Numbered from the stretch's first letter, positions 7,523-31,341 are shown. The stretch is 64,000 nt of DNA from Candidatus Humimonas hydrogenitrophica (GCA_947581615.1 CANPVD010000053.1:89737-153736), one strand, 5' to 3'. Translations and numbers: made by a program. The notes: generated by a model from the letters alone, not told the origin.

Positions 7523-7539
7523 CACGGAGGGAGGCTCAC

Positions 7540-14638: not shown

Positions 14639-15223
14639 ATGGACGGGTCCGGGACGGCCCCACCCGCATCCGTGAGCGGGAGGGGCGCGGTCCGGATCCG
14701 GGACGCGTCCGTCGCGGCCTGGGTGGAGAAGCACGGAGCCGAGCTGCGCCGGCACGTGGAGCGACTGCTCCCGGGGCCGGACGCCGCGGACGATGTGCTC
14801 CAGACCGTGTGGATCACGGCGCACCGCAAGCCTCCCGAGGCACGCGAGGGACCGGCGCTTCGAGCCTGGCTGTACCGGGTCGCCACCCATGCCGCCCTCG
14901 ACCGCCTGGGCTCCGAGCGTCGACGGAGGCGCGCGCTGGAGGGCCGGGCCCTGTTCGTGGCCCCGGAGGCGCGTCCGGCGCCCGACGCGGCCCTGGAAGG
15001 CCTGGGTGAGGGAGCCCGCCTCCGGGTCCGGGAGCACGTGGCCGCGCTGCCCCCGAAGCAGCGGCAGGCCGTATGGATGCGGTGGGCCGAGGGCCGCAGC
15101 TACGCCGACATCGCCGCGCGGCTCGGGTGCTCCGAGGAGAGCGCCCGCGGCAACGTCTACCAGGGGATGAAGCGGCTCCGGTCGGAGCTGTTCGGATTGT
15201 GGCAGGAGGAGGCGGGAGCATGA
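14639..15223 (+). CDS. ECF (sigma-24 family) RNA polymerase sigma factor
   Basis: Region 2 (DDVLQTVWITAHR) and region 4 with a helix-turn-helix (RSYADIAARLGCSEESARGNVYQGMKRLR) are recognisable. Confidence 0.85.
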   Translation: MDGSGTAPPASVSGRGAVRIRDASVAAWVEKHGAELRRHVERLLPGPDAADDVLQTVWITAHRKPPEAREGPALRAWLYRVATHAALDRLGSERRRRRALEGRALFVAPEARPAPDAALEGLGEGARLRVREHVAALPPKQRQAVWMRWAEGRSYADIAARLGCSEESARGNVYQGMKRLRSELFGLWQEEAGA

Positions 15224-15924
15224 GCGGACAGCCCTGCTGGGTTTCGGAGGAGGGCCTCGTGGCCTTCGTGGCCGGCGAGCTCGAGCCCGAGGCCGAGGTG
15301 GCGGTGGCCCGTCACCTGGCCGAGTGCGATGCCTGCCGGGAAGAGGCGGTGCAGTTCCGGCTGCTCGGAGCGGCGATGGCGGAGGAGGCGGGCGCCGAGG
15401 CGGTGCGCTGGCACGCCTTCTCGAGCCCGTTCGGACGCATGTACGTGGCGGCCACCCCGGGGGGACTGGTCCGGGTATCCTGGCAGCAGCCCGGGGACGA
15501 CGCCTTCGAGGCCGAGCTCCACGACCTGCTGCCGGGCCGGCCGGTCCTGCACGATCCGACCGATGAGGTCCTGCTCGAGACGGAGCGTCAACTGACCCAG
15601 TACTTCGCCGGCGAGCGGGAGTCCTTCGACCTCCCCGTGGACCTCGAGACCCTCCCCACCTTCTCGCGGAGGGTTCTCGAGGCGCTGCGGGAGGTCGAGT
15701 TCGGTAAGGTGGTGGCCTACTCGGACCTGGCCCGCCGGATCGGACGGCCCCGGGCGTCGAGGGCCGTGGGCAATGCCCTGGGACGGAACCCGGTGGCGAT
15801 CGTCGTGCCCTGTCACCGGGTCGTGCGTCAGGACGGGTCGCTGGGTGGCTACGGCGGCGGGGTGGAGTACAAGGAGCGCCTGCTGGCGGTCGAGGGTCGC
15901 CAGGACCTGCTCCGGGCGGGCTGA
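15220..15924 (+). CDS. Anti-sigma factor with a zinc-finger (ZAS) domain fused to a full-length O6-alkylguanine-DNA alkyltransferase (Ogt/MGMT)
   Basis: The N-terminus reads C6...H32-x3-C36-x2-C39 (HLAECDAC), matching the ZAS motif. The C-terminus carries the MGMT helix-turn-helix and the active site IVVPCHRVV. The start overlaps the sigma factor stop as ATGA. Confidence 0.8.
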   Translation: MSGQPCWVSEEGLVAFVAGELEPEAEVAVARHLAECDACREEAVQFRLLGAAMAEEAGAEAVRWHAFSSPFGRMYVAATPGGLVRVSWQQPGDDAFEAELHDLLPGRPVLHDPTDEVLLETERQLTQYFAGERESFDLPVDLETLPTFSRRVLEALREVEFGKVVAYSDLARRIGRPRASRAVGNALGRNPVAIVVPCHRVVRQDGSLGGYGGGVEYKERLLAVEGRQDLLRAG

Positions 15925-15951: not shown

Positions 15952-16482
15952 TCAGGCCGCCGTCGCGCCAGGGACGAGCCGCACCCCGGCCGCCAGGGCG
16001 TCGTCGAAGGCGATCTCGGCCTGGTCGACCCGGACGATCCACGCCGGATAGCGCTGGACGACCTCCACCGAGACGCCCGGGAGCACGCCCAGACTGGCCA
16101 GCGCGCGGCCCTCGGGACTGCGGGGCTCCTCGAGACCCGCCACGGTCGCGCGGTCTCCCGGCTCGAGATCGAGGAGGGTGACGCGCGCGGTCCCGGGCGC
16201 CGAACCCAGAGACGCTGGTCCGGTCGACCCTGCACGGCGGCCCGCGCCGAGTCCGTTCAGGATGCGGCGCAGGAAGCCGCCACCCTTCCCGTGGGCCCGC
16301 ACCCTGCCCCGCTCCATCCAGGCCGGCTCGACCGGGTTCTCGTAGCCGCAGTGCGGACAGCGGACGTACCGGCAGGCTCGCGCCAGCGGGCACCCTACAC
16401 AGGCTGGCTGCCCCCGATCCTCCCGGAAGCTGCGAGCACACAGGCCGCATTCGACCTCGCGACTCGCCCGACCGGAAGCCAC
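15952..16482 (-). CDS. feoA: FeoA-domain protein with an N-terminal Cys-rich zinc-ribbon
   Basis: The C-terminal FeoA/SH3-like domain reads VTLLDLEPGDRATVAGL...GVLPGVSVEVVQ. Upstream of it lies CGLC...CVGC...C...CPHC. The GTG start at 16482, 27 nt downstream of the feoB stop, is inferred and could be extended or shortened. Confidence 0.5.
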   Translation of the reverse strand: MASGRASREVECGLCARSFREDRGQPACVGCPLARACRYVRCPHCGYENPVEPAWMERGRVRAHGKGGGFLRRILNGLGAGRRAGSTGPASLGSAPGTARVTLLDLEPGDRATVAGLEEPRSPEGRALASLGVLPGVSVEVVQRYPAWIVRVDQAEIAFDDALAAGVRLVPGATAA

Positions 16483-16508
16483 GGCCGCTGAAGCCGGCGA
16501 CGGGGCGC

Positions 16509-18569
16509 TCACAGGCCGATCCCCCGCAGCGTGAGGTTCAGCACGAATCCGACGCCGAACGCGAACGTCACCGCGAACGCGAAGATCCCGGCCGCGATCT
16601 TCGGTCCCCGCTCCTTCCACATCATGAGGAACTGCGCCACACAGGGTACGAAGAGGGTGAGCGTCACCGCCGACACGAGGAGTCCGACCATGTCCAGGGC
16701 GCCCGTCCGCTGGAGCTCGTACAGGCCGGCGGCCCCGTAGTCGCGCCGGAAGAAACCGAGCAGGAACACCGACGCCGTCTGCCGGGGGAGGCCCAGCGCG
16801 CCCACCACCGGGTGGAGGAGGTCCAGGACCCTGCCCAGGAGCCCGGTGACCTGGCCCGCCCACAGGAGCACGCTGGCCAGCATGAACAGCGGAATGACCT
16901 CCAGCAGGTACCAGTGCAGCCGCGTGGCGGTCTTCCGGACCACGTTGGACGCGCGCGGCACGCGCAGGGGAGGTAGCTCCATGTGGAAGGACGCCGAACG
17001 CCCCGGCAGGACCCGCGCCCCCACCGCCCCGATCAAGAGGAAGGTGCCGGCCAGGACCGCCACCCACAGCCCGAGTGCCACGGGCTGCCCCGAGAGGATG
17101 GCCAGGATCACACCGAGCTGGGCCGAGCAGGGGATCGCCAGGGCGAGGAGCACCGTGGCCAGGATCCTCTCGCGCCGCGTCTCGAGCGTCCGGGCGACCA
17201 TGGTGGCCATGGTGTCGCACGCGAACCCGAGCACGATGGGGATCACCGCCTGTCCGTTGAGGCCGATCCTCTTGAACAGCCGATCCACGAGCAGGGCCAG
17301 CCGCGGGAGGTAGCCGCTGTCCTCGAGCACGGAGAAGAACAGGAAGAAGGTGGCCACGATCGGCAGGATGATGGCGATCGCATAGCGGAGGCCCAGGGTG
17401 AGGAGCCCGTAGTCGCCGACCCACAGCCCCCGTAGCCACGGCCAGGGAATCCCCCGGAACAGGCCCTCGAGGAACGGATTCACGTGACCCAGGAAGAGGG
17501 AGCGCTCCAGCCAGTCCACCAGGATTCCGGCCCCGAAGTGTCCCACGAACTCGTACAGCCCCAGCCACAGGACCACCAGTAGCACCGGGATCCCCGGCAG
17601 GGGCCGCCCCAGCCAGCGGCCGAGCCTCTCGGCCACCCTCACCCGGCGTTCACCGGTGGCCTCGAGCACGTCCCCGGCCACGGAGCGCGCCACCTCGTGA
17701 CGCTCCACCGCCGACCGGTAGGCCGTCCCGTCTCGCGTCCCGGCCGCGGCCCGGCGCAGAGCCTCCAACGCCCGCCGTCCTCCGTCCGTCTCGGCGGCCT
17801 CCACCATCGCCCGCGTGTCCTCATCTCCCTGGAGGAGGAAGGACGCGATGGCTCGCCGGGGCATGGCATAGCGGCCGGACAGGGCGCCCTCCAGGGCCTC
17901 GATCGCCGCGGCCACGTCGGGGCGCCGCCCCAGCGGCTCGGGCGGCTCACCCGCGCGGATGGCTCCGAGGATCGCCCGCTCCAGCCCTTCCACCCCCTGC
18001 CCCGTCACCGCCACGATCGGGACGACGTGCAGGCCGAGTCGACCTGCGAGGAGGTCCGGTCTGAGCTCCAGGCCGAGACGTCCGAGCTCGTCCACCATGT
18101 TCAGGGCGAGCACGAGGGGCTTTCCGAGCTCCATCAGTTCGAGCGTCAGGGGAAGGGACCGTGCCACGCAGCGAGCCTCGACGACGTGGACCAGGGCGTC
18201 GATGCCCTCCTCGAGCACCAGTCGCCGGGAGACGCGCTCCTCTTCGGTGGTGGGCGACAGCGAGTAGAGCCCGGGCGTGTCCACGACGCGGACGACGTGT
18301 CCGTCGAGTCGCCCCACCCCGTATGTCACCTCGACGGACGTTCGTGGATAGTTGGAGACGGTGACGTAGCGCCCGGTGAGGCGGTGGAAGAGCGTGCTCT
18401 TGCCGACGTTGGGCGCCCCGACGAGAGCCACGCGCCAGGCGGCCTCCTCCGGCGAGGTCGCGGTCGGGCCCGGCGCCCTCCCTTCCGGCCGGGACGGAGG
18501 GCACATGGGACAGGCTCTCGACCCCTCGAGGGCGGTGCGTGCGATTGGAGCGTTCGGTCGCAGCCTCAT
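16509..18569 (-). CDS. feoB: Ferrous iron transporter FeoB
   Basis: The GTPase G1 motif GAPNVGKSTLF is followed by a multi-transmembrane permease domain. A roughly 45-aa N-terminal extension containing CPMCPP precedes the GTPase domain. Confidence 0.9.
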   Translation of the reverse strand: MRLRPNAPIARTALEGSRACPMCPPSRPEGRAPGPTATSPEEAAWRVALVGAPNVGKSTLFHRLTGRYVTVSNYPRTSVEVTYGVGRLDGHVVRVVDTPGLYSLSPTTEEERVSRRLVLEEGIDALVHVVEARCVARSLPLTLELMELGKPLVLALNMVDELGRLGLELRPDLLAGRLGLHVVPIVAVTGQGVEGLERAILGAIRAGEPPEPLGRRPDVAAAIEALEGALSGRYAMPRRAIASFLLQGDEDTRAMVEAAETDGGRRALEALRRAAAGTRDGTAYRSAVERHEVARSVAGDVLEATGERRVRVAERLGRWLGRPLPGIPVLLVVLWLGLYEFVGHFGAGILVDWLERSLFLGHVNPFLEGLFRGIPWPWLRGLWVGDYGLLTLGLRYAIAIILPIVATFFLFFSVLEDSGYLPRLALLVDRLFKRIGLNGQAVIPIVLGFACDTMATMVARTLETRRERILATVLLALAIPCSAQLGVILAILSGQPVALGLWVAVLAGTFLLIGAVGARVLPGRSASFHMELPPLRVPRASNVVRKTATRLHWYLLEVIPLFMLASVLLWAGQVTGLLGRVLDLLHPVVGALGLPRQTASVFLLGFFRRDYGAAGLYELQRTGALDMVGLLVSAVTLTLFVPCVAQFLMMWKERGPKIAAGIFAFAVTFAFGVGFVLNLTLRGIGL

Positions 18570-18761
18570 GTCTCGGATCGATCCGCTCCGCCAGGAAGAA
18601 TGAGACCCGGTATCATTGTCTGCAGGCTAACCCCCGGGCCGCGGGCCGTCTGTAGGGCTTGGTCCTTGCAACACCGTGGTGGGCCGCGGAAGGGCCGTGT
18701 GGGGAATCCCCCCTCGCGGGGGCGCAGAGCACCTTTTCGACGACCCGAATGGAGTTTCGCA

Positions 18762-18778
18762 CGACTTGCCCGTAGGGT
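18762..18778. promoter_or_regulatory. Inverted repeat GTAGGG-tattt-CCCTAC in the divergent feoB/cyc2-like leader region
   Basis: This is a perfect 6-bp inverted repeat with a 5-bp AT spacer in the most AT-rich part of the 309-bp intergenic region. A second GTAGGG copy lies at 18652-18657. Confidence 0.25.
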
Positions 18779-18878
18779 ATTTCCCTACAGCACGCATACA
18801 TAGGGTAGGGTAGATCGGTATACCGACAGGCGGGACCGGCAGCGGCCCGCATGGCGCCTACGACCCCCCGGAAGGAGA

Positions 18879-20282
18879 ATGGACATGTTCAAGAAGTTGA
18901 GGAGCTCCGCCGCCCTTGGCGGGCCACTCTCGTTGGTCGCGATCCTGGTACTCGCCGGGGCGCGAACGGGCGAAGCCAGCGTGTCGGCCGGAAAGGCCAT
19001 CGCGCTCAAGGACGTTCCGATTCCGAGCTTCTCCCGTCAGACCGGTCTGGCCTGCTCGGCATGCCACACCGCGTTCCCGCAGCTCACGCCCTTCGGCCGC
19101 CAGTTCAAGCTGAACGGCTACACCATGATGGGCGGTGAGCAGAAGATCCAGGCCAAGAAAAAGAACGGCGGCACGTCCCTCCAGCTGGGCGTGATTCCGC
19201 CCCTGTCCTTCATGCTCCAGAGCGCATACTCGGTCGTGAACACGAAGGTGCCCGACACGCAGAACGGCGACCTTCAGTTCCCGCAGGAGTTCAGCGTGTT
19301 CGTGGGCGGCGAGATCGCGCCGAAGCTCGGCTCGTTCGTACAGATTACGTACGACCCGGAGGGCGCGGCGCTGGGCCTGGACAACACCGACTTCCGCTTC
19401 GCGACCCACAGCTCCGTGGACTCGAAGGACCTGACGCTCGGACTGACCCTGAACAACAACCCGACGGTCGAGGACCTGTGGAACTCGACGCCGGCGTGGG
19501 GCTATCCGTACGCCTCGTCCGAGGTCGCTCCCGGACCCTCCGCCGGCACGCTGGTGGACGGCGCGCTCGGCCAGGAGGTGGCCGGCCTGGGCGGCTACGG
19601 GATGTTCGACAACAGCCTGTACGGGGCCTTCACGCTGTATCGCTCGGCCCAGCAGGGAGCCCCCCAGCCGCCGGACGTGACCGCGGAGGGCGTGATCAGC
19701 GGCGTGGCGCCCTACTGGCGTGCGGCGCTCACGCACGACTGGGGGACCAACTCCTTCGAGCTCGGCACCTTTGGTCTGCACGCGCAGATGTTCCCCAACG
19801 GCATCAGCGGCCTGACCAACAAGTTCACCGACGTGGCCCTGGACGCGCAGTACCAGCACATCACGGCGCAGGGAGCGCTGACCGCGCACGGCGCGTTCAT
19901 CCACGAGAAGCAGACCCTCGACGCCACCTACCAGGCGGGCGAGTCGGCCAACCCCACGGACAATCTCAACACGGTTCGCGGAGACCTCTCCTACCACTGG
20001 AACGACGCGGGCCTCGGCCTGACCCTGGGAGCCTTCTCGACCACGGGCACCACCGACCCGGGCCTGTACGGCCTCGCGGCGGTCGATGGCAGCGCCACCG
20101 GGAACCCCAAGACGAACGGCTTCATGGGCCAGATCGGCTACATGCCGTGGCTCAACACGCGCTTCGTCCTGCAGTACGTGCTGTACAACGATTTCAACGG
20201 CGGCAGCACGAACTACGACGGGTTCGGACGCTCGGCTTCCGACAACAACACGCTCTACCTGCTGAGCTGGATCATGTTTTGA
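18879..20282 (+). CDS. Cyc2-like fused monohaem cytochrome c and outer-membrane beta-barrel porin
   Basis: A signal peptide is followed by a single CSACH motif near residue 59, immediately followed by AFPQLTPFGRQFKLNGY. About 400 aa of amphipathic beta-strand pattern follow, ending in an aromatic C-terminus (LLSWIMF). Confidence 0.65.
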   Translation: MDMFKKLRSSAALGGPLSLVAILVLAGARTGEASVSAGKAIALKDVPIPSFSRQTGLACSACHTAFPQLTPFGRQFKLNGYTMMGGEQKIQAKKKNGGTSLQLGVIPPLSFMLQSAYSVVNTKVPDTQNGDLQFPQEFSVFVGGEIAPKLGSFVQITYDPEGAALGLDNTDFRFATHSSVDSKDLTLGLTLNNNPTVEDLWNSTPAWGYPYASSEVAPGPSAGTLVDGALGQEVAGLGGYGMFDNSLYGAFTLYRSAQQGAPQPPDVTAEGVISGVAPYWRAALTHDWGTNSFELGTFGLHAQMFPNGISGLTNKFTDVALDAQYQHITAQGALTAHGAFIHEKQTLDATYQAGESANPTDNLNTVRGDLSYHWNDAGLGLTLGAFSTTGTTDPGLYGLAAVDGSATGNPKTNGFMGQIGYMPWLNTRFVLQYVLYNDFNGGSTNYDGFGRSASDNNTLYLLSWIMF

Positions 20283-20381
20283 CGGCTCGCACCGCGTCTC
20301 GCGCCGGGTCCCGGTGACGCCTTCTACGGGCTCGAGGGGTATGCGGGAGCTCCGACGGCTCAGACACGATGGGAGGACTAG

Positions 20382-20798
20382 ATGACAAAGGTGAGACTCG
20401 CGGCCACGATGGCCGTCCTGTTCACCCTGGCCCTGGTCGGAGCGGCCGCCGCGCGCGAGCCGCACCCGGCGGTGGCGACGTGGGGAAAGGACGCCAGGTT
20501 CGACACGGCCGCCCAGATCACCGAGGCCATGATCGATGCGGGACGGAAGATCTTCCACGGACCGGGCAGCTGCTTCGCCTGCCACGGACAGAATCTCCAG
20601 GGGACCGCGATCGCCCCGCGTCTGAGCGACTCCACCTGGAAGAACGGAGATGGGAGCTACGCCGACATCGTCAAGATCATCACGAACGGCGTGTCGGGAA
20701 CCGCCATGGTGTCGCACCCGGGAGGCATCAGCGATGAGCAGCTCCTCGAGGTGGCGGCCTACGTGTGGGCGGTGAGCCACGGGAAGGCCAAGATCTAG
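20382..20798 (+). CDS. Periplasmic monohaem class-I cytochrome c
   Basis: A signal peptide, a single CFACHG motif and a downstream Met (TAMVSHPGG) are present. The protein is 138 aa. Confidence 0.8.
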   Translation: MTKVRLAATMAVLFTLALVGAAAAREPHPAVATWGKDARFDTAAQITEAMIDAGRKIFHGPGSCFACHGQNLQGTAIAPRLSDSTWKNGDGSYADIVKIITNGVSGTAMVSHPGGISDEQLLEVAAYVWAVSHGKAKI

Positions 20799-20816
20799 GA
20801 ATCACCTCACCGGTGA

Positions 20817-20859
20817 ACGAAGAGGCGGGCCCGTGATCGACGCGGGCCCGCCTCTTCGT
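20817..20859. terminator. Bidirectional terminator hairpin (17-bp perfect inverted repeat)
   Basis: ACGAAGAGGCGGGCCCG-tgatcgacg-CGGGCCCGCCTCTTCGT between the convergent cytochrome c and cupredoxin genes. Confidence 0.5.
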
Positions 20860-20914
20860 GTGCTCCTGCCCCGTCCCGGCGGACCCCTCTCGGGCACCCG
20901 CCGGGGGGCACGGC

Positions 20915-21448
20915 TCAGTGGTTCTGCGCGCTCACCGCGGCGGGCTCCTCGCCCGTCACGACGATCGTCCCCTTCATTCCAAACGACTGGTGCGGCACGC
21001 ACAGGTAGGAGTAGGTGCCGGACGGGAAGTACCGGGGGTCGATCACGAGCTGGTACGTCGCCCCCTTGCTCACGAGGAAGGGGCTCATCTCGGGAGGCGG
21101 TCCCTTGGCGTCGAACGCGGCGCGGCTGGCCGCCATGATCGTGGGGAAGCTGCGGGAGGAGAGTCGTCCGCCCGCCGGCTCGTTCGCGAACTCGACGTCG
21201 TGGGGCGTGTCGGTCGTGTTGACCCACCGCACCGTGTCGCCCGGCACGACCGTCACGTTGGACGGGACGAACTTGAAGTTCTCCATCTTGATCGTGACCG
21301 TTCGGGGGCGCCGGGTGTCCTGCTGGGCCGCCGCGCTCGTGGCGGTGATCGCCAGCGCGACCAGCACGGCGCCGATCACGAGCTGCAGCGTCCAGAATAG
21401 ATCTATCTGTCGTCGCGACACTTTCGGTCTCCGGACTGTTCGAGTCAT
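20915..21448 (-). CDS. Membrane-anchored type-1 copper protein (plastocyanin/pseudoazurin-like cupredoxin)
   Basis: An N-terminal transmembrane helix is present. The copper ligands are His (TPHDVEF) and C-x2-H-x4-M (YLCVPHQSFGM). Confidence 0.8.
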   Translation of the reverse strand: MTRTVRRPKVSRRQIDLFWTLQLVIGAVLVALAITATSAAAQQDTRRPRTVTIKMENFKFVPSNVTVVPGDTVRWVNTTDTPHDVEFANEPAGGRLSSRSFPTIMAASRAAFDAKGPPPEMSPFLVSKGATYQLVIDPRYFPSGTYSYLCVPHQSFGMKGTIVVTGEEPAAVSAQNH

Positions 21449-21617
21449 CCATCGCCCGGGGCCCTCGGCCCCGGGACCGAATTCTCACAGCCGGAATAGA
21501 ACAAAGCGCGGGCCCCCCCACCGTCGGGAATCTCCCCACGAACAACGTGGGGCAACTCTCCATCGGGTGTGAGGGGCCCGCGCCTACAACTGTAGACGAG
21601 GTCGGGCGCCGTCTACA

Positions 21618-22442
21618 TCAGTCGGCGCCGCGCCCCCGGGCCGCGTGCGCCTTGAGGAACGCCTCGATCCCGTTGAGCTGATCCGTGGTCAACGTGTCGA
21701 CCTGCATCAGGCGCATGTTCTGCTGCATGCGCGGGACGACCTCGCCCCACTGGGCCGCCGTGTGGGCCTTGGGCGAAGGCGTCTGGTGGCACACCGTGCA
21801 GCGGCTGATGAAGACGGCCGCCTCCGGACCGGACGGTACCTCTCCGGCCTTCGCGACGGGGAGGGCGTTCCGCGTCAGGTAGGCCCCCAGGGAATCGATC
21901 TGCTCCCCGGTCGGCAGGGACCGGTACTGCACGGCCGAGCGCAGCTGCTCGCCTCCGACGCGCTGCAGGAAGGGCCCGTTCACACGGCTCTCGAGCAGGC
22001 TCATCCGAAGCTCCATACGGCGCAGGAGGATGGGCCACTCCGCCGCCGAGTGCATCTGGGGCGTCGGCAGCCAGTGACACTGCGTGCAGTACGCCTGGAG
22101 GAGTCCGGCTCCCGTGCTGTGTTGCTCGGGCAGGGCGGCCGCCGTGAAACCGGACGGGGGCAGGCCCGTGCCGAGCGACGCCACCGCCCGCCAGCGCTGG
22201 GCTCGGCTCAGACGCGAGAACTGCGGACCGGCCAACTCCTCCATGAAGCTGTCCGCCCGCGCCACGATCGTCGCGTTTCCCGCGGCCTGACCGGCCTGCC
22301 CCGCCTGCGACGCGCCTCCTGGCCCGCACCCCACCAGGGCGAGTCCCGCCACCGCCAGCCCAAGAGGGATGGCCCAGCGGCCACCCCTGCTCTCCGTGCG
22401 CGACGAGGCCGGGTGCTCGCCCGCCACTCCCTCGCTGCCCAT
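21618..22442 (-). CDS. Dihaem c-type cytochrome lipoprotein
   Basis: The signal peptide carries a lipobox (ALVGCG). Two CxxCH motifs (CTQCHWLP, CTVCHQTP) are present. The ATG at 22442 was chosen over the upstream in-frame ATG because the signal peptide begins there. Confidence 0.65.
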   Translation of the reverse strand: MGSEGVAGEHPASSRTESRGGRWAIPLGLAVAGLALVGCGPGGASQAGQAGQAAGNATIVARADSFMEELAGPQFSRLSRAQRWRAVASLGTGLPPSGFTAAALPEQHSTGAGLLQAYCTQCHWLPTPQMHSAAEWPILLRRMELRMSLLESRVNGPFLQRVGGEQLRSAVQYRSLPTGEQIDSLGAYLTRNALPVAKAGEVPSGPEAAVFISRCTVCHQTPSPKAHTAAQWGEVVPRMQQNMRLMQVDTLTTDQLNGIEAFLKAHAARGRGAD

Positions 22443-22697
22443 GCTGCCTCCCTCGTGCTGTGGCGCGGCCGACCTGTCGATCGTTCGCGCTCCTGTCGTC
22501 CCCTCACCGATCTCGTTCGAGGTCACCGGGACCGAATGGGCCGGCCGCCCGATGCGCTCTACGCCGGGCGGCGCGGCCCATACGGCACCGCAACGCTCCC
22601 TAGAGTGCCTCGGAAGCACTCCGGACGCAATACGTGGAGACGCGAGGGATGCCGTATGCTGGTGGGAGACCGTATGCGAGCAGGAGGAGGCCGCGCG

Positions 22698-23975
22698 ATG
22701 CAACGGATCGAAAAGGCCCTTCCATCCGGCGCTGGCCCCCACTATCGTGTTGGCTTAATGGATACATCCTCCTCCCCCTCCCCGACCATCGACGACGGTG
22801 AGCGTCGCGCCCTGGACGCGCTGCGCGAGGCGCTGGGATCCGACTTCGAGATCCTCCGTCCCCTGGGTCGCGGCGCCGTGGCGACCGTCTACCTTGCAAA
22901 GGATCGGGCCCTCGGCATCCCCGTGGCCGTGAAGGTGCTGCGTCCGGGCAAGGCGGCTGACGAGACGGCCCGCAAGCGCTTCGAGCGGGAGGCGCGGGCG
23001 GCCGCATCGCTGTCCGACCATCCGAACGCCGTCGCGGTCACGCGCTTCGGTCGTCTCCCCAACGAGACGCCCTACCTGGTCATGCAGTACGTGAAGGGCC
23101 GCACCATGGAGGAGCGGCTCAAGGCCGAGGGACGGCTTCCGGTGCCCGAAGCGACCACCGTGCTGGCCGAGGTCGCCTCGGCCCTCGCCGCGGCGCACGA
23201 GAAGGGGATCATCCACCGGGACGTCCGTCCCGGCAACGTGATGTGGGACGAAGAGAAGCGCCGCGCCCTCCTGACGGACTTCGGCATCGCCGCGGTGCTG
23301 GATGCCGACGGGTCCGACTCCCCGCGCCTGACACAGACGGGAGAGCTGCTCGGGGACCCCCGCCACTCGAGCCCCGAGCAGCTCACCGGCGTAACGGTCA
23401 CCGAGTTGAGCGACATGTACGGGTTCGGCCTGTTGGGCTACGAGCTCCTGGCCGGCCGTGGGCCCTACGAGGCGAGGTCGGCGGCCGACTGGATTCGGGC
23501 CCACCTCCAGCAGGAGCCCAGGGACCTTCGCGAGCTCCGGCCCGACGTGCCCGAGCCGCTGGCCGACCTCCTGCGACGCTGCCTGGCCAAGGAGCCGCGC
23601 CACCGCCCCTCGGCCCGGGACGTAGCCCGTGCCCTGGCCAAGCAGACCTCGCCCGCCGGGGGGACTCAAGCTGGCCACCCGGAGGAGCACGACCTCACGA
23701 AGCTCATCAAGCGGCGCGTGCCCCAGATCGTCCTGATCGTGGCGGGCGCCGGCGTGGGCCTCATCCAGCTGGTCGGCTCCCTGAACGACCTCCTGCCTCC
23801 CAAGAGCCAACTCCTGACCGTGATCTTCGTCGCCGCGGCCGTCCTCGCCTCGGCGGTGATCGCGTGGTTCCATGGCGAGCGCGGACGGCAGCGCGCCCCC
23901 ATCGTCGAACGGGTCCTCCTGGGACTCATCGGGGTCGCCTGGCTCGCGGTGACGATCGTGGCGCTCGTCGAGTGA
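22698..23975 (+). CDS. Hanks-type Ser/Thr protein kinase with C-terminal transmembrane helices
   Basis: Kinase motifs GRGAVATVYLA, VAVK, HRDVRPGN and DFG are present. A ribosome-binding site (AGGAGG) lies 9 nt upstream. There are two C-terminal transmembrane helices. Confidence 0.85.
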   Translation: MQRIEKALPSGAGPHYRVGLMDTSSSPSPTIDDGERRALDALREALGSDFEILRPLGRGAVATVYLAKDRALGIPVAVKVLRPGKAADETARKRFEREARAAASLSDHPNAVAVTRFGRLPNETPYLVMQYVKGRTMEERLKAEGRLPVPEATTVLAEVASALAAAHEKGIIHRDVRPGNVMWDEEKRRALLTDFGIAAVLDADGSDSPRLTQTGELLGDPRHSSPEQLTGVTVTELSDMYGFGLLGYELLAGRGPYEARSAADWIRAHLQQEPRDLRELRPDVPEPLADLLRRCLAKEPRHRPSARDVARALAKQTSPAGGTQAGHPEEHDLTKLIKRRVPQIVLIVAGAGVGLIQLVGSLNDLLPPKSQLLTVIFVAAAVLASAVIAWFHGERGRQRAPIVERVLLGLIGVAWLAVTIVALVE

Positions 23976-24006
23976 CGGGAGTCCTCTGGACAGTCCGACG
24001 CGGAGC

Positions 24007-24894
24007 GTGCGCATGAGCGATACGACAGTCGCACCGCAGTTCTCGGACATCGACGCCTGGGGCGCGACGCACCGCGGCAACGTGCGTCCGGACAACCAGG
24101 ACCACTTTCTCCTCGGGGCGCTGTCGTGCGGGGTGACCGTCGAGTGCTCCAGCCTCGCGGTAGGGCCGGGCGAGCTGTGGCAGGCCGAGCGCCTCGCGAC
24201 CCTGGCCGTGGTGGCGGACGGAGTGGGCTCTTCGGGCGGCGGCGAGCAGGCGGCGCGTCGCGCCGTCGAGGGACTCGTCTCGGCCGTGTCGCGGTCCTTC
24301 CACGAGGCAGCCAGCGTAGAACCCGAGGATCCCGAGGCGTTCTCCAGGATGCTGAACGCCGCGGCGCTGGACGTCCACGAAAGCCTCCTGGCCGAGGCGG
24401 AGAAGGAGGCCGACGGTCGGCGCTTCGCCACCACGGCTACCCTCTTCCTGGGCCTGTGGCCCCACGCCTACCTCCTGCAGGTGGGCGACTCCCGCTGCTA
24501 CGTCTTCCAGGAGGGCGAGCTGACCCAGATCACGCGCGATCAGACCCTCGCGCAGGACCTGGTGGACAGCGGCGCCCTCACCCGCACGGTCGCCGAGCGC
24601 AGCCGGTGGGCGCACATCCTGTCCAGCGCCATGGGGGGCCAGCAGGCCGTGCCGGTGGTCACGCGCGTCACGCGGGACTGGGGCACGGTCGTCCTCCTGT
24701 GCAGCGACGGGCTCACCAAGCACGTCTCCGACGAGCGCATCCGGGAGCGGCTGGCCTCCATGACCAGCGCCCGCCAGGTGGTCGAGCAGCTCATGCAGGA
24801 TGCCCTCGACGACGGCGGCACGGACAACATCACGCTCATCGTGGGGAAGACGCTCGAGCCGTCAAGCGGGGAATGCGCGGTGCCCGCTCGGTGA
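24007..24894 (+). CDS. PP2C-family Ser/Thr protein phosphatase
   Basis: The motifs ATHRGNVRPDNQDHF and DGVGS...LCSDGL are present. Confidence 0.85.
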   Translation: MRMSDTTVAPQFSDIDAWGATHRGNVRPDNQDHFLLGALSCGVTVECSSLAVGPGELWQAERLATLAVVADGVGSSGGGEQAARRAVEGLVSAVSRSFHEAASVEPEDPEAFSRMLNAAALDVHESLLAEAEKEADGRRFATTATLFLGLWPHAYLLQVGDSRCYVFQEGELTQITRDQTLAQDLVDSGALTRTVAERSRWAHILSSAMGGQQAVPVVTRVTRDWGTVVLLCSDGLTKHVSDERIRERLASMTSARQVVEQLMQDALDDGGTDNITLIVGKTLEPSSGECAVPAR

Positions 24895-25013
24895 CGTCGC
24901 GGGCCGCGGCGTGAGCTTCGATCCGCCCAGGAAGCCGGCGGCCCGGGCGGCAGCGCCCCGGCCGGTCGTCACCACGCTCCCACCGATTCGCCCGGACGCT
25001 CCACCGATACCCG

Positions 25014-26471
25014 ATGCCTGACCAAACCGGAGCCCGCGGCGCCGCCGAGGTCGCCGCCACCGCCTCGCGGAGCGCCGGGCTCAAGCGCGAGCTCCGGCTG
25101 GTCGATCTCGTGCTCACGCAGGTGATGTTCATCGTGGGCGCACAGTGGGTGGGCACCGCGGCCATGCTCGGCCACGAGCAGATCGTTTACTGGCTGCTCG
25201 CCATGGCGTTGTTCTACCTGCCGCAGGCGGCCGTGGTCATCTTTCTCAACCGGCGCATGCCGCTCGAGGGCGGCCTCTACCAGTGGGCCAGGATCGGGTT
25301 CAACGACGGGGTGGGCTTCCTGGTCGCCTGGAACCTGTGGATGTTCGCGCTCATCCTCCTGGCCTCGTACGGCGTCGTGATCGCCGACACCTTCAGCTAC
25401 GTCCTCGGGCCGAGCGCCCACTGGCTCACGGGCACCAAGTGGTACGACGGCGCGGTGACGGGTTGCATGGTCGCGATGATCATCCTCGTCTCCCTGTACG
25501 GGCTCCGGATCGGAAAGTGGATCCACGACGCCGGGGGGCTCGCGCACCTCCTCACGTTCGCCGCCCTGCTCGCGATGCCGATCTTCGCCTTCACCCACCA
25601 CACGGTGGTCGACCCTCACCCGTTCGCGGCAGCCATGCCGAGGGCGAACCTGCTGTCGGTGAACATCTTCAGCAAGCTGGCGCTCGGAGCCCTCACCGGC
25701 TTCGAGTACGTGGCCATCCTGGCCGGCGAGACGCGCGATCCCGGCAAGGCCATCGGCCGCTCCGTGCTCATCGCCACGCCGGTCATCGCGCTCATGTTCA
25801 TCCTCGGCACGAGCGCGGTGCTGGCGGCCACGCCGGCGGGCAAGATCGACCTCATCGCGCCCATCCCGCAGGCGCTCACCTACGGGCTCCGGTCGTTCGG
25901 GTGGGCGGTCTACATCGTCCCCGTGCTCACGATGCTGCTGCTCATGCGGCACATCGGGAACGTGAACCTGGTGTTCGCGGCCAACGCGCGGCTGCCGATG
26001 GTGGCCGGCTGGGACGGCCTCCTGCCCGGCTGGTTCACCCGGCTCCACCCGCGCTACCGGACGCCGCTCAACTCCATCCTGTTCGTCGGCGCGGTGACGC
26101 TGGTGTTCGCCGCGCTGAGCCTGGTCGGCGTAGGATTGCAGGAGGCCTTCCAGCTCCTGGACAACGCGGCCGGCGTCCTGTATGCCCTGTGCTACCTGGT
26201 CATGTTCGCGCTGCCACTGGTCGGCCTGCGCGGGTTCGCGAGGGCGCCCCTGTGGCTGCGCCTGGCGGCCGTGTCGGGGTTCGCGGTGACGCTGCTCTAC
26301 ATCGTGCTGTCGGTGTTCCCGATCATCGACGTGAAGAGCTGGACGAGCTTCGCCGCCAAGATCATCGTCGTGGTCGTGATCGCCAACCTGATCGGGGCCG
26401 CGCTGTACCGCGCCGAGAAGCGGCGGCAGGGCGAGCGCGAGGCCGAGGTGGTGAGCGCGGTCGGCGCGTAG
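25014..26471 (+). CDS. APC-family amino acid permease
   Basis: The protein has 12 transmembrane helices and an amino-acid permease-like pattern. Confidence 0.85.
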   Translation: MPDQTGARGAAEVAATASRSAGLKRELRLVDLVLTQVMFIVGAQWVGTAAMLGHEQIVYWLLAMALFYLPQAAVVIFLNRRMPLEGGLYQWARIGFNDGVGFLVAWNLWMFALILLASYGVVIADTFSYVLGPSAHWLTGTKWYDGAVTGCMVAMIILVSLYGLRIGKWIHDAGGLAHLLTFAALLAMPIFAFTHHTVVDPHPFAAAMPRANLLSVNIFSKLALGALTGFEYVAILAGETRDPGKAIGRSVLIATPVIALMFILGTSAVLAATPAGKIDLIAPIPQALTYGLRSFGWAVYIVPVLTMLLLMRHIGNVNLVFAANARLPMVAGWDGLLPGWFTRLHPRYRTPLNSILFVGAVTLVFAALSLVGVGLQEAFQLLDNAAGVLYALCYLVMFALPLVGLRGFARAPLWLRLAAVSGFAVTLLYIVLSVFPIIDVKSWTSFAAKIIVVVVIANLIGAALYRAEKRRQGEREAEVVSAVGA

Positions 26472-26527
26472 CGACGGCATGGCGCCCGCGGCCAGTCTGC
26501 ACATCTGAACCAGAGGAGCACCGAGAC

Positions 26528-27499
26528 ATGCCGGAGGCCCTGGAGCCCGTCCGACCCATCACGCTGGAGGAGATCCGCGACGCGCGCTCGCGCATCGCGG
26601 GCGTCGTCGTGCGTACCCCGCTGGTCCGGCTGGAGCTGGGACCCGAGTATCCCGAGATCCGGCTCAAGCTCGAGAGCCTCCAGCCGATCAACGCCTACAA
26701 GCTGCGCGGCGCCGCCAACGCCGTGGCGCTCCTTCCCGAGGCGGAGCGCGCTCGCGGCGTGTGGACGATCAGCGCGGGCAACGCGGGACAGGGGGTGGCG
26801 TACGCGGCGAGGGCCGCCGGGGTGCTCTGCACCGTCGTCGCCATCGAGACGGCGCCCACCTCGAAGCTGGAGCGCATGCGGGCGCTGGGAGCGCGCGTCG
26901 TCCCCGTCTCCTACGACGTCGCCTGGCAAGCGCTCGAGGCACGCCAGTACCCGGGAATCGAGGGCACCTTCGTGCATCCCTTCGACGACCACGACTTCAT
27001 CGCCGGACACGCGACCATGGGCCTCGAGATCCTGGAGGACGCGCCCGATGTGGCCGCGGTCGTCGCCGCGATCGGCGGAGGCGGACTCGTCACGGCGCTC
27101 GGAAGCGCGATCAAGGCGCTCCGGCCCGAGATCGACGTGTGGGGGGCCGAGCCGGAGACGGCCGCGCCCGCGGCGCGGTCGTTCGAGGCGGGGGCCCCGC
27201 AGCGGTTCGACGCGTGGGAGGCCTCGTTCGTGGACGGCGCCGGGGGCAAGAGCGTGTTCCCCCGCATGTGGGAGCGCATGCGCCCGGTGGTGGACGGCTC
27301 GATCGTGGTCACCCTGGACGAGACCCGGCGCGCCATGCGGCTCATGGCGGAGAAGGCGCGGGTCATCACCGAGGGCGCGGGCGCACTGCCGGTGGCCGCC
27401 GCGCTCACGGGCAAGGCCGGCCCCGGGCCGATCGTGGCCGTCGTGTCGGGGGGCAACATCGACCTCGACACGTTCGCCGAGCTGATCCGGGAGGCGTAG
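26528..27499 (+). CDS. PLP-dependent threonine/serine dehydratase-like enzyme
   Basis: The PLP-lysine region INAYKLRGA and a glycine-rich loop GGGGL are present. Confidence 0.8.
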   Translation: MPEALEPVRPITLEEIRDARSRIAGVVVRTPLVRLELGPEYPEIRLKLESLQPINAYKLRGAANAVALLPEAERARGVWTISAGNAGQGVAYAARAAGVLCTVVAIETAPTSKLERMRALGARVVPVSYDVAWQALEARQYPGIEGTFVHPFDDHDFIAGHATMGLEILEDAPDVAAVVAAIGGGGLVTALGSAIKALRPEIDVWGAEPETAAPAARSFEAGAPQRFDAWEASFVDGAGGKSVFPRMWERMRPVVDGSIVVTLDETRRAMRLMAEKARVITEGAGALPVAAALTGKAGPGPIVAVVSGGNIDLDTFAELIREA

Positions 27500-27546
27500 G
27501 GTGGAGCGATGACCGATCCGTACACCTGTTCGGGGGGAAATCCGTG

Positions 27547-29064
27547 ATGTCCGAGCCACGCGTCCGATCGCACCGCCCCGCCGCAGCGGGAGCCACCACG
27601 CCGCGCGGCATCGCGGCGCTCATCACCATGGCGGCGGCGCTCGCCACTCCTTCCCTCATCGCCTTCACGGCGCTCGCCCTGCCGCCCTCACCCGCCGCCG
27701 CGCAGCAGCCTGCCCTCTCCTCCAACGTCCTCCGCTACGTGGCCGTGGACACCCCCGTAGTGGCCCTGACGCACGTGCGAGTCATCGACGGGACGGGGGC
27801 GCCGGCGCGGGCGGACCAGACGCTGGTCATCCGGGCCGGGACGATCGCCGCGCTGGGGCCGGCTTCGTCGGTGAAGGTGCCGCCGGGCGCGGACGTGATG
27901 GACCTCGCCGGGAAGTCGGTGATTCCGGGCCTCGTCATGATGCACGAACACCTGTTCTATCCCACCGGTCCGGGGGTGTACGGCAACACCGCCGAGAGCT
28001 TCACGCGACTCTACCTGGCCGGCGGCGTCACCACCATGCGCACGACCGGGGACATGAACGGCTACGGTGACCTGGCCATCGCGCGGGCCATCAAGGACGG
28101 CCTCAAGCCGGGTCCGTGGATCGACGCCACCGGTCCCTACCTGACGGGCGCGGGGAACCGGTTCGAGCAGATGTACACGCTGAAGGGTGCCGCCGACGCG
28201 AAGCGCATGGTGGACTTCTGGGCTGATGCGGGCGCCACCTCCTTCAAGGCGTACATGAACATCACGCGAGCAGAGCTCGGCGCCGCCGTACAGGAGGCGC
28301 ACGCCCGCGGCCTCAAGATCACGGGGCACCTGTGCTCGGTGACGTACCGCGAGGCGGCGGACCTGGGCATCGACGACCTGGAGCACGGCTTCTTCGTCTC
28401 CACCGACTTCGTGGAGGACAAGAAGTCGGACCAGTGTCCCGGGCAGCGAGCCGGGATGGCGGCCCTGGACCGGGTGGACCCGGCCGGGCCCCGGTTCGGC
28501 GCCCTGGTGGACACCCTCATCGCGCACCACGTGGCCGTGACCTCCACCCTCACCGTGTTCGAGACCTTCACGCCCGGCCGGCCGCAGCCCCCGGGGCTCG
28601 ACGTCCTGGACCCCATCCTGAAGCAGCAGTTCGAGAAGACCTACGAGCGCATCCAGCAGGACACGGCGTCCATCTATCCAGAGCTGTTCGGGAAGGACAT
28701 GGCCATGGAGCGACGCTTCGCCCGGGCGGGCGGGCTGCTGCTGGCCGGCACCGACCCCACCGGCTACGGGGGCGTCATCCCCGGCTATTCGGACCAGCGG
28801 CAGGTCGAGCTCCTGGTCGAGGCGGGGCTCACGCCCCTCGAGGCCATCCGGATCTGCACGCTGAATGGCGCCATCTACCTGGGACGCGCCGACCGGATCG
28901 GCTCGCTGGCCGTGGGCAAGCAGGCGGACCTCGTGGTCATCGATGGCGATCCGGCCGTCCACATCTCCGACATGCGCAACGTGGAAATGGTCTTCCGCCA
29001 GGGCGTGGGCTACGACCCGCGGAAGCTGATCGCGAGCGTGAGAGGGGAGGTCGGGTTGTTCTGA
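27547..29064 (+). CDS. Secreted amidohydrolase-family metal-dependent hydrolase
   Basis: A signal peptide is present. The motifs MMHEHL and GHL...D are typical of the amidohydrolase TIM-barrel. Confidence 0.8.
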   Translation: MSEPRVRSHRPAAAGATTPRGIAALITMAAALATPSLIAFTALALPPSPAAAQQPALSSNVLRYVAVDTPVVALTHVRVIDGTGAPARADQTLVIRAGTIAALGPASSVKVPPGADVMDLAGKSVIPGLVMMHEHLFYPTGPGVYGNTAESFTRLYLAGGVTTMRTTGDMNGYGDLAIARAIKDGLKPGPWIDATGPYLTGAGNRFEQMYTLKGAADAKRMVDFWADAGATSFKAYMNITRAELGAAVQEAHARGLKITGHLCSVTYREAADLGIDDLEHGFFVSTDFVEDKKSDQCPGQRAGMAALDRVDPAGPRFGALVDTLIAHHVAVTSTLTVFETFTPGRPQPPGLDVLDPILKQQFEKTYERIQQDTASIYPELFGKDMAMERRFARAGGLLLAGTDPTGYGGVIPGYSDQRQVELLVEAGLTPLEAIRICTLNGAIYLGRADRIGSLAVGKQADLVVIDGDPAVHISDMRNVEMVFRQGVGYDPRKLIASVRGEVGLF

Positions 29065-29307
29065 TGCGTCTGCGGCCGTGCGTGGAGGCACCCGGTCGTC
29101 GCACGGTGCACCCCCTGCGGTGATGAGGCGGAAGACATAGGAGGAGGCCCCATGACAGCTCCGGATCGACGCCACGGCATCGCTGGATTCCTGCATTGTG
29201 CGGAGGCGGGCGCCGCCGCGGGGCTCCTGGCCGCCACCCTCTCCAACCGCTACCGAATCGAGCGCGAGCTCGGCCACATTCGTCCCCCTCTCCCCGGGAG
29301 GCATCCC

Positions 29308-29763
29308 ATGCTTCGCCGTGCTACCGGTGTCCTGCTCGCAGCGCTCGCAATCCTCTCGGTGGCCCCGCACGCGCTCCAGGCGCAGCAGCGACAGTACATC
29401 GCGCCGCGAGCCGCGACCGACACGACCACGCTTCCCTTCAGCGGAGGCGTCCTGGTCGGCAACACGCTCTACCTGAGCGGCACGATCGGCCTCCTGCCCG
29501 ACCAGACCGTGCCCGCCACGGCCACCGAGGAGGCGCGACGCGTGCTGGACAACATCAAGGAGGCGCTGACCCGGGCGGGGATGACGATGGACGACCTGGT
29601 GCAGGTGCAGGTGTTCTGCTCGGACCTCTCCACGTACGCCGACTTCAACAAGGTGTACCGGACCTACTTCACCAAGGTCTACCCGCCGCGCGCGTTCATC
29701 GGCGTGGCCCACGTGCTGTTCGACGCCCGGTACGAGGTGCAGGGGATCGCCGTGAAGGGCTGA
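29308..29763 (+). CDS. RidA/YjgF-family protein with a signal peptide
   Basis: The YjgF fold motifs GNTLYLSGTIG and PPRAFIGVA are present. An N-terminal signal peptide is seen when the start is taken at Met53 of the ORF. Confidence 0.7.
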   Translation: MLRRATGVLLAALAILSVAPHALQAQQRQYIAPRAATDTTTLPFSGGVLVGNTLYLSGTIGLLPDQTVPATATEEARRVLDNIKEALTRAGMTMDDLVQVQVFCSDLSTYADFNKVYRTYFTKVYPPRAFIGVAHVLFDARYEVQGIAVKG

Positions 29764-29809
29764 GGCGAGTCGCCCCCCAAGCGCCGCACCGGTGGAGGCC
29801 GCGCTCCCC

Positions 29810-30163
29810 CTATCCCCCCGCCAGAGCGCCCACGACCAGGAAGGGCTCCCGGCCCGCCGCGACCGCCTCGGGGAGCGGCGTGTCGGGCGGTTCGAGGGAG
29901 AGGTCCCGCCCGCCGGCGAAGAAGCGGAGGAAGTCCCGGCGCTCGCACGTGACGTGATCGCGGATCGTGCCGCGCAGCACCGGATAGGCCTCCTCCAACG
30001 CGTCGAGCACGGCCTCCAGGGTGACCTCGCCCGCCACCCGGAGCGCGACTTCGCCCTCCACGCGGGCCAGCGTCCGCAGGTGGAAGGGCAGCTCCACCCG
30101 TACGAGCCGGCCCTCCCCGCCAGCCCGCGGGGTGGCGTCGCCGGCGGGCGCGTCGGGACTCAC
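29810..30163 (-). CDS. MoaD/ThiS-like ubiquitin-fold protein ending in Gly-Gly
   Basis: The C-terminus reads ...[10 protein letters not shown] followed by the stop. The GTG start overlaps the stop of the upstream BNR gene as GTGA. Confidence 0.45.
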
Positions 30164-31341
30164 GGCAGGGTCTGCACCTCGACCGCCAGCACGGCCGGGA
30201 GGTCCCGGACGATGGGCTCCCACCGGTCCCCGGAGTCGGCCGACGCGTACACCTGGCCGCCCGTCGTGCCGAAGTAGATCCCGCACGGCTCCAGGGCGTC
30301 GGCGGCCATGGCGTCGCGCAGGACGTTCACGTAGCAGTTCTCCTGTGGAAGGCCCCGGGTGAGCGGCTCCCACTCGCCGCCGCCGGTTCGGCTCCGGTAG
30401 ACCCGGAGCTTCCCTTCGGGTGGATAGTGCTCCGAGTCGCTCTTGATCGGCACGACGTACACGGTCTCGGGCTCGTGCGCGTGGACCTCGATCGGGAAGC
30501 CGAAGTCGCTGGGGAGGTCGCCGCTCACCTCGTGCCACGAGTCCCCCGCGTCGTCGCTCCGCATGACGTCCCAGTGCTTCTGCATGTACAGGACCTCGGG
30601 ACGGGCGGGGTGGAGGGCGATCCGGTGCACGCAGTGGCCGATCTCGGCCTCCGGGTCGGGCATGTAGTTGGACACGAGCCCGCGGTTGATGGGACGCCAG
30701 GTGGTCCCTCCATCGACCGTGCGGAAGACGCCCGCCGCGGAGATGGCCGCGTACATCCGGTGGGGATCGGACGGGTCCAGCAGGACGGTGTGGAGGCAGA
30801 GGCCTCCGGCGCCCGGGTTCCAGTGGCTGCCGCCGCCGTATCCCCGGAGCCCCGACACCTCCTGCCAGGAGGTCGCCCCGTCGGTCGAGCGGAACAGGGC
30901 GGCATCCTCGACGCCCGCGTACACCGAGTCCGGATCGTCGAGCGAGGGCTCCAGGTGCCACACCCGCTTGAACTCCCAGGGATGGTCGGTGTCATCGTAC
31001 CACTTGTGCGTGGTGAGCGGCTTCCCGGTCTCCTCGGAGGTGTCGTAGGCGAACTTGTTGCTCACCCCGGTGGGCATGCCCTCGGAGACGTCCGGCAGCT
31101 TCTCCCCGCCGGGCGTCTCCCAGGTCCGGCCACCATCGCTGGAGCGCTGGATGATCTGCCCGAACCAGCCCGAGGTCTGCGAGGCGTAGATCCGGTCGGG
31201 ATCGGCCGCCGAGCCCTTCATGTGGTAGATTTCCCAGCCGCCGAAGTGGGGGCCGCTCACCTCCCAGCTCTTCCGCGTCCCGTCGGCGGTGAGGATGAAC
31301 GCGCCCTTCTTGGTACCGACTAGCACCCGCACTCCGCTCAT
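30160..31341 (-). CDS. BNR/Asp-box repeat beta-propeller protein (sialidase or Ycf48-like fold)
   Basis: Several S-x-D-x-G-x-T-W repeats are present ([40 protein letters not shown]). A GAGGAG ribosome-binding site lies upstream of the ATG at 31341. Confidence 0.75.

Follow-up and report, generated by a model that had tools for sequence, protein, structure and literature searches.

Fused cytochrome-porins of the Cyc2 family are recognised, in the scheme of Keffer et al. (2021, PMC8406198), by a signal peptide, a single CXXCH motif with AxPxFAR[Q/K][T/Y] on its upstream side and a PxL that begins four residues downstream, a length of at least 365 amino acids, and a porin of 16 strands that has OprO and OprP as its structural homologues. 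Fe(II) oxidase activity has been demonstrated for one representative of each of three Cyc2 clusters and for an additional Cluster 3-type Cyc2 from Nitrospirota. In the neutrophilic pathway (McAllister et al. 2020, PMC7029218), electrons pass from Cyc2 to periplasmic Cyc1 and on to a cbb3 or aa3 oxidase, with reverse flow via bc1, and in Acidithiobacillus ferrooxidans the rus operon (cyc2-cyc1-cup-coxBACD-rus) groups the genes for Cyc2, c-type cytochromes and a type-1 copper protein. Cyc2 homologues have already been published from Gemmatimonadota (PMC9769843, PMC11316326, PMC10367259), and likewise from Calditrichota and Bacteroidota. Here, we describe a Cyc2-type gene, open reading frame (ORF) A, and its neighbours in 64,000 nucleotides of DNA from Candidatus Humimonas hydrogenitrophica (CANPVD010000053.1:89737-153736), a stretch that we call the window.

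ORF A is followed by the gene for a monohaem cytochrome c (ORF B). A first-pass annotation of the same DNA had read this pair, together with a blue-copper protein (ORF C) and a dihaem cytochrome c (ORF D) encoded on the opposite strand and the divergent feoB and feoA, as a single module for Fe(II) oxidation or sensing, of a kind not known to it from a high-GC lineage like this one. ORFs A to D, feoB and feoA are all present in our six-frame ORF list as it had described them. Its claim of novelty falls away with the Gemmatimonadota homologues cited above, and we conclude that ORF A, paired with the cytochrome gene, adds one ordinary member to a family already known, the Cyc2 proteins.

ORF A is almost certainly a Cyc2-family cytochrome-porin

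ORF A occupies 18879..20282 on the + strand and encodes 467 amino acids: a predicted signal peptide, a putative monohaem cytochrome region of about 40 residues, and an OprP-like porin beta-barrel that ends in Phe (...WIMF). The true start is probably the ATG at 18885 (MFKK..., with the ribosome-binding site AAGGAG), which would give 465 amino acids, because this start and its AAGGAG site are kept in relatives; the length of 465 to 467 residues, depending on the start, lies well above the family minimum of 365. By inspection, the N terminus is signal-peptide-like, with a basic MFKKLRSS, the hydrophobic stretch AALGGPLSLVAILVLAGA and small residues after it; its sequence is variable among homologues, yet it is hydrophobic in all 50 of the 50 that were aligned. 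The only CxxCH is CSACH at residues 59-63, within the cytochrome region PSFSRQTGLACSACHTAFPQL (residues 49-69). The signal-like N terminus, the lone CxxCH at residue 59 and the terminal Phe had all been noticed in the first-pass annotation, and all three were recovered here.

The motif string of ORF A reads PSFSRQT-GLA-CSACH-TAF-PQL. It matches the published upstream motif at 6 of the 7 specified positions, the sole deviation being Ala to Ser in the FAR triplet, and it carries the P-x-L four residues past the CXXCH as PQL, a motif kept in 217 of 232 homologues. The Ala/Ser position varies among homologues, with FARQT in 105, FSRQT in 83 and FTRQT in 14 (counts out of 232, from a set of 270). 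A homologue on a Caballeronia plasmid, by comparison, has ALPAFARQT-GLA-CVACH-VSF-PEL, which is the exact published motif at the spacing of ORF A. As a side observation, a screen with the strict pattern PxFAR[Q/K][T/Y] drops 90 of the 120 closest homologues of ORF A (FSRQT in 74, FTRQT in 13, YSRQT in 3), and also 5 YARQT sequences. Surveys of Cyc2 that filter by this strict pattern may undercount the clade.

Homologues are numerous. A word-seeded protein search returned more than 7500, the best 120 of which are at least 49% identical to ORF A and 440 to 491 amino acids long (one has 418), and HMMER matched 3100 of 1.84 billion 50%-identity cluster representatives at E <=1e-3 and 439 at E <=1e-30. 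A tblastn search of plasmids gave homologues of 33 to 45% identity, among them proteins of Ralstonia and Caballeronia with 44% over 90% of the query (4e-93); Ralstonia is named by Keffer et al. (2021, PMC8406198), along with Burkholderia, among the genera that hold Cyc2 homologues. The clade of ORF A, whose members in Gemmatimonadota, Bacteroidota, Ignavibacteria, Calditrichota and Kryptoniota are 46 to 59% identical along the entire barrel, is by these sequence comparisons unusually conserved beside the reference Cyc2s, which are 15 to 53% identical to one another (identity table in the Keffer 2021 supplement, PMC8406198). The nearest named relatives are metagenome-assembled genomes (MAGs) of Gemmatimonadota/Gemmatimonadales, and the GC content of the window is about 70%. 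ORF A probably belongs to Cluster 3, an assignment that follows the literature on Gemmatimonadota homologues; one survey put every Cyc2 homologue that it had from Gemmatimonadota in Cluster III and had only other phyla in Clusters I and II. MAGs labelled Bacillota and Gammaproteobacteria are also among the top matches, which suggests horizontal transfer or binning error.

A structure model of ORF A gives a porin barrel with 16 long strands, as read from the model, that resembles OprO and OprP. These phosphate-selective porins (PDB 2o4v, 4rjw) share the fold of the barrel at 11% identity and have neither a cytochrome domain nor a haem motif. A PDB search with the sequence of ORF A returned nothing meaningful. 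An MtrB-like porin was also considered and rejected on the comparison of structure models: the MtrB/MtoB/PioB type combines a barrel of about 26 strands with a separate decahaem cytochrome, and ORF A does not conform to it.

The simplest alternative is that ORF A is an ordinary porin in which the CxxCH is fortuitous and no cytochrome is present. It could draw on the Pfam and NCBIfam scans, in which ORF A had zero matches, and on the likeness of the barrel to general and phosphate porins. Chance does not account for the conservation, however. In the 50-sequence alignment C59, C62, H63 and the residues flanking them are invariant, within the block IPSF[S/A/T]RQTGLAC-x-x-CHT-x-FPQL-x-x-FGR-x-FKLNGY, where SF-RQT, F-P-L and FGR-FK-NGY are likewise invariant or nearly so; of 270 homologues, 256 carry a CxxCH once and once only, in every case 3 residues past the RQT; and the motif is a published hallmark of Cyc2. 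This conservation effectively refutes the idea of a chance motif, to which we give virtually no credence. Because signature motif, length, OprP-like barrel model and homology point the same way, ORF A can be assigned, on sequence and predicted fold, almost certainly to the Cyc2-family fused cytochrome-porins, as the first-pass annotation had proposed from its architecture. The outcomes that it had named as refuting this, a failed beta-barrel prediction or a match to a different family, did not occur.

A small monohaem cytochrome c is the conserved partner of cyc2

ORF B (20382..20798, + strand; start at 20409 in the annotation of the Joint Genome Institute [JGI]) encodes a class-I monohaem cytochrome c of 138 amino acids, presumably periplasmic, with one CxxCH (CFACH), the Met ligand region GTAMVSHPG, and matches to Cytochrome_CBB3 (3.6e-10) and Cytochrom_C (9.5e-07). 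Among solved structures, CcoP domains and cytochrome c6 are nearest to it. Because they lie on the same strand with a gap of only 99 bp, cyc2 and ORF B are probably co-transcribed; the gap holds no stable structure (z = +1.0).

We compared 84 loci, made up of 79 species-level genome loci drawn from the best 80 matching genome loci, together with the closest relatives. The species loci come mostly from Gemmatimonadota, Bacteroidota, Ignavibacteria, Calditrichota and Kryptoniota, all of the FCB-type clade. A small CxxCH cytochrome on the same strand within 700 bp of cyc2 is present in 54 of the 84, and ORFs with a CxxCH make up 12% of those within 1 kb of cyc2, against 2% at 2 to 4 kb. Cyc2 and a small monohaem cytochrome c are the sole conserved pair; the soluble cytochrome pointed out in the first-pass annotation is indeed the partner. 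In 15 to 17 loci from Bacteroidota and Ignavibacteria, genes for a Rieske protein and for a fusion of cytochrome b with a dihaem c lie within about 4 kb of cyc2, mostly downstream.

Individual loci vary on this theme. A Calditrichia MAG (L091 10001-13942) has two tandem cyc2-like genes of 445 codons each, both followed by their own gene for a cytochrome c of about 160 amino acids; genes for a DsrE and a SoxA/TsdA-type cytochrome come next. On plasmid pSBC1_3 of Caballeronia sp. SBC1 (L087 4915-7932), a HiPIP gene lies upstream of the homologue and a gene for a dihaem-type c cytochrome downstream. The HiPIP recalls the Iro/HiPIP carriers of some iron oxidisers, and the host is not known for iron oxidation. 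In Acidiphilium cryptum, a c-type cytochrome gene lies downstream of the homologue. What is conserved beside cyc2 is thus a small cytochrome c, in many cases joined by a Rieske/cytochrome b complex, and not a cupredoxin or Feo, and this directs experiments to a respiratory role.

feoAB and the divergent intergenic region

The genes on the other side of cyc2 encode FeoB (16509..18569, - strand; TIGR00437, 3e-115) and, downstream of it, FeoA (15952..16318, - strand), which the Pfam and NCBIfam scans likewise recognised. The distance between the start codons of feoB and cyc2 is 309 bp, as first reported, for the long form of feoB, and 446 bp with the shorter JGI start. Conserved elements are shared among the four closest relatives in the divergent intergenic region (18570..18878). 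A palindrome GTAGGG-N5-CCCTAC lies at 18772-18788, about 95 bp upstream of cyc2; a conserved 20-mer, GGCGGGACCGGCAGCGGCCC, lies about 45 bp before the cyc2 ATG; and a second palindrome, AATGAGACC-C-GGTATCATT, lies at 18599-18617 beside feoB. Both palindromes are kept in relatives of 95 to 77% protein identity. We regard the palindromes as candidate operator sites. GTAGGG-N5-CCCTAC has a single site with 0 mismatches in the window and 4 sites at 2 mismatches, against 2.5 expected, and because it is not enriched we make no claim of a regulon. No sigma-70 consensus was found in the feoB-cyc2 leader, and Rfam gave nothing credible in 18300-23000.

This arrangement could be read as iron acquisition, with the cytochrome-porin supplying Fe2+ to FeoAB, either as a redox-gated channel or by reduction, at the outer membrane, of Fe(III) outside the cell, under control of a shared divergent promoter region. 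Divergence from feoB is kept in the three closest lineages in which the upstream region is known, an AATGA-N9-TCATT palindrome adjoins feoB, and the Cyc2 model itself requires entry of Fe2+ into the pore. The association is nevertheless confined to few relatives. FeoB is encoded within 10 kb of cyc2 in 0 of the 79 other species, and feoAB adjoin it only in the 95% and 77% relatives and are absent in the 68% and 59% relatives. In a 78% relative (L083) the elements close to cyc2 persist while the sequence on the feoB side cannot be aligned. The partners that are conserved are electron carriers and bc-type complexes; transporters are not among them. We therefore consider an acquisition role very unlikely and conclude that the adjacency of feoAB is local synteny, with feoB and feoA as neighbours and without a demonstrated part in the cyc2 unit.

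Two further observations concern this side of the locus. The long ORF that contains feoA (15952-16500, - strand) has a Cys-rich upstream stretch (CGLC...CVGC...CPHC) that is zinc-ribbon-like (Zn_Ribbon_1, E 0.047, sub-threshold), and gene callers place the start of feoA further in, which leaves 121 or 89 amino acids without this putative extension. Between peptidase genes and feoA (14639-15924, + strand) lie genes for an ECF (extracytoplasmic function)-type sigma factor and then a putative anti-sigma factor (zf-HC2), the latter fused to methyltransferase-1N and DNA_binding_1 (Ogt/MGMT-like) domains.

The convergent cupredoxin and dihaem cytochrome genes

ORF C (20915..21448, - strand) encodes a plastocyanin-like type-1 copper protein of 177 amino acids. 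The cupredoxin profile PF00127 (Copper-bind) matches it at 3e-17, and its Cu ligands are H83, C150, H153 and M158. The best solved relatives are cyanobacterial plastocyanins, first that of Phormidium (3cvb, 3.9e-15), followed by amicyanin and pseudoazurin, and there is no rusticyanin among its 58 PDB matches at E <=0.01, so we reject a rusticyanin-type cupredoxin. The first-pass annotation had called ORF C a transmembrane-anchored blue-copper protein: the copper protein is confirmed, and the N-terminal segment could equally be a membrane anchor or a cleavable signal peptide (...TSAAA/QQ).

ORF D (21618..22442, - strand) lies upstream of ORF C in one convergent unit and encodes a dihaem class-I c-type cytochrome of 274 amino acids, with CxxCH at 119 and 215 and the lipobox LALVGC, in keeping with the dihaem lipoprotein first described. 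It consists of two repeats of C-x-x-C-H...P-x-P-x-x-H-[ST]-A-x-x-W...R-M. In Pfam and NCBIfam scans ORF D itself has sub-threshold matches only, and proteins related to it match Cytochrome_CBB3 (1.8e-08) and DHC (4.4e-06).

The 124-nucleotide spacer between the convergent ORFs B and C folds with a minimum free energy of -82 kcal/mol (z = -6.2), and 0 of 200 shuffled sequences were equally stable. It contains a hairpin (20817..20859) with a perfect 19-bp GC-rich stem and a 5-nucleotide loop, likely a bidirectional terminator that parts two transcription units. Because this strong hairpin lies between B and C and none lies between cyc2 and B, we treat cyc2-B and D-C as two separate convergent units.

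Comparison of loci bears out this separation. In tblastn searches with the window proteins, the cupredoxin was found near cyc2 in 4 of the 84 loci and a dihaem cytochrome of the ORF D type in 5. A 10.9-kb segment corresponding to 20900-31700 of the window is missing from the 78% relative (L083 2430-3440); in the window it carries the cupredoxin, the dihaem cytochrome, a Ser/Thr kinase, a PP2C, an amino-acid permease, a PALP enzyme, an amidohydrolase and RidA. In L083 a single small DUF6789 gene comes after cyc2 and its cytochrome c gene, and next to it lie orthologues of the window genes at 31.7-41.3 kb, synteny picking up again at the MFS, S26, DUF456, OsmC and EamA genes. The segment is an indel or a variable island. 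The 77% relative has kept ORF D and lacks the cupredoxin. ORFs C and D may be additional lineage-specific periplasmic carriers that are not integral to the cyc2 unit.

These results can be set against the possibility of one co-regulated module for Fe(II) oxidation or sensing, resembling the rus operon and made up of cyc2, the genes for the monohaem cytochrome c, the cupredoxin and the dihaem cytochrome, and feoAB, as the first-pass annotation had it. All the genes do lie within 6.5 kb, with conserved palindromes in the intergenic leader. Their arrangement is repeated in the 95%-identical relative, which comes from another sample, and feoAB, the cyc2-cytochrome c pair and the dihaem gene are kept together in the 77% relative. 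The wider comparison, however, takes the module apart: cupredoxin, dihaem cytochrome and FeoB are each rare or absent beside cyc2 elsewhere, close relatives lack one or another of them, and the hairpin divides the genes that remain. The rus-like electron path finds no support, given the plastocyanin-like character of the copper protein and the lack of cox genes among the annotated ORFs of the window, nor does the sensing role, given the lack of any sensor domain in the window annotation and the Pfam and NCBIfam scans. We consider a single module of this kind distinctly improbable.

A narrower proposal can be made for this small Gemmatimonadota lineage. The Cyc2-like protein might work together with FeoAB by way of the conserved divergent control region that their genes share, as a redox-active gate in the outer membrane that supplies Fe2+ for uptake or conditions it, or as a switch between oxidation and uptake under one palindrome-binding regulator; separately, the cupredoxin and the dihaem lipoprotein might form an undescribed periplasmic branch that accepts electrons from Cyc2. 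We hold this to be a long shot. Coupling to FeoAB, if true, would give Cyc2 a role in iron homeostasis, not respiration.

Electron-transfer genes in the wider window

About 9 kb upstream of cyc2 lies a large electron-transfer operon (434-9731, + strand) for which no link to cyc2 has been established. From first to last, its genes specify a 16-haem cytochrome c, a Rieske-like protein, a cytochrome b (PF00033, 1e-47), a 9-haem cytochrome, a 21-haem cytochrome whose N terminus is NapC/NirT-like, an 11-haem cytochrome and a cytochrome b561-like protein, and it is followed by a gene for a B12-binding radical SAM protein (9736-11520). The operon may specify an extracellular or quinol-linked electron-transfer system.

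Proposed function of the Cyc2-type protein

By analogy with characterised Cyc2 proteins, we put at somewhat better than even the chance that ORF A oxidises dissolved Fe(II) at the outer membrane and feeds periplasmic cytochromes. As in the published Cyc2 model, dissolved Fe2+ would enter the pore and be oxidised by the haem, presumably attached at CSACH, that plugs its periplasmic side. The electron would then be handed to the co-encoded soluble periplasmic cytochrome c, ORF B, and would pass onward to membrane respiratory complexes encoded elsewhere, be it a terminal reductase, a terminal oxidase or a complex of Rieske protein and cytochrome b. Supplementary energy gain or the handling of Fe(II) is more likely than obligate lithoautotrophy, because the surrounding genes look heterotrophic.

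Several points weigh against Fe(II) oxidation by this protein. The strict published pattern PxFAR[QK][TY] fails on ORF A, which has Ser for Ala, and the predicted local distance difference test (pLDDT) score is below 60 over most of residues 1-110, the cytochrome region of the model. The Cyc2 authors rate the function of Cluster 3 as the least certain, and for the clade of ORF A function is read from sequence comparison. The window itself, with its peptidases and its amino-acid and peptide transporters, reads as that of a heterotroph degrading peptides and amino acids. Among the annotated ORFs of the 64-kb window, neither terminal oxidase nor carbon-fixation genes were found, and no haem-copper oxidase domain either, a few small ORFs lying outside the scan.

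In a different proposal, ORF A is an outer-membrane conduit with another substrate or direction: oxidation of Mn(II), of reduced humics or of organic-complexed metals, uptake of electrons from a cathode or mineral, or outward flow. The function of Cluster 3-type homologues in organisms that are not iron oxidisers is explicitly uncertain. Cyc2 homologues are reported from the Mn-oxidising 'Ca. Manganitrophaceae' (PMC9040806), one of our homologous loci (L047) comes from a Melioribacter MAG of a Mn enrichment, and the electrode oxidiser Tenderia electrophaga carries Cyc2. The multihaem cytochrome, Rieske and cytochrome b genes upstream in the window would also suit such a conduit. Every Cyc2 that has been tested biochemically so far oxidises Fe(II), however, and a single haem in a narrow OprP-like pore favours a small dissolved ion over solids. 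On balance, we regard another substrate or direction as rather unlikely, and we retain oxidation of dissolved Fe(II) as the working interpretation of ORF A.

Databases list sequences such as ORF A as 'hypothetical protein' or 'cytochrome C', so recognition of the Cyc2 type is of use chiefly for correct annotation. ORF A is also a further case in support of the view that heterotrophic bacteria of the FCB group commonly carry Cyc2-type genes.

Comparison with known systems

MtoAB, PioAB and MtrAB likewise join outer-membrane beta-barrels to c-type cytochromes and so move electrons through that membrane. The rus operon of A. ferrooxidans resembles the locus described here in bringing a Cyc2, c-type cytochromes and a type-1 copper protein together. 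It differs in several respects: aa3 oxidase genes were not found among the annotated ORFs of the window, the cytochrome that follows cyc2 is monohaem, whereas Cyc1 of the rus operon is a dihaem c4, and the plastocyanin-like copper protein is encoded on the opposite strand with a dihaem cytochrome, in a separate unit that is not conserved with cyc2.

The neutrophilic pathway (PMC7029218) is matched by the pair of cyc2 and a class-I cytochrome c, and in related loci of Bacteroidota and Ignavibacteria also by Rieske and cytochrome b genes nearby. Oxidase and bc complex genes, by contrast, are not adjacent to cyc2 here, the organism is no known iron oxidiser, and confidence in that pathway rests on Cluster 1 affiliation, whereas for ORF A the literature points to Cluster 3. 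Compared with the published proteins Cyc2PV-1 of Mariprofundus ferrooxydans, Cyc2 of A. ferrooxidans and Cyt572 of Leptospirillum (PMC8406198), ORF A stands apart in the Ser of its FAR triplet, which it has in common with most of its closest homologues, and in a host that looks heterotrophic. It shares with them the signal peptide, the single N-terminal CxxCH and the spacing of the motifs, a length of about 465 amino acids, an OprP-like barrel ending in Phe, and an adjacent gene for a periplasmic cytochrome c.

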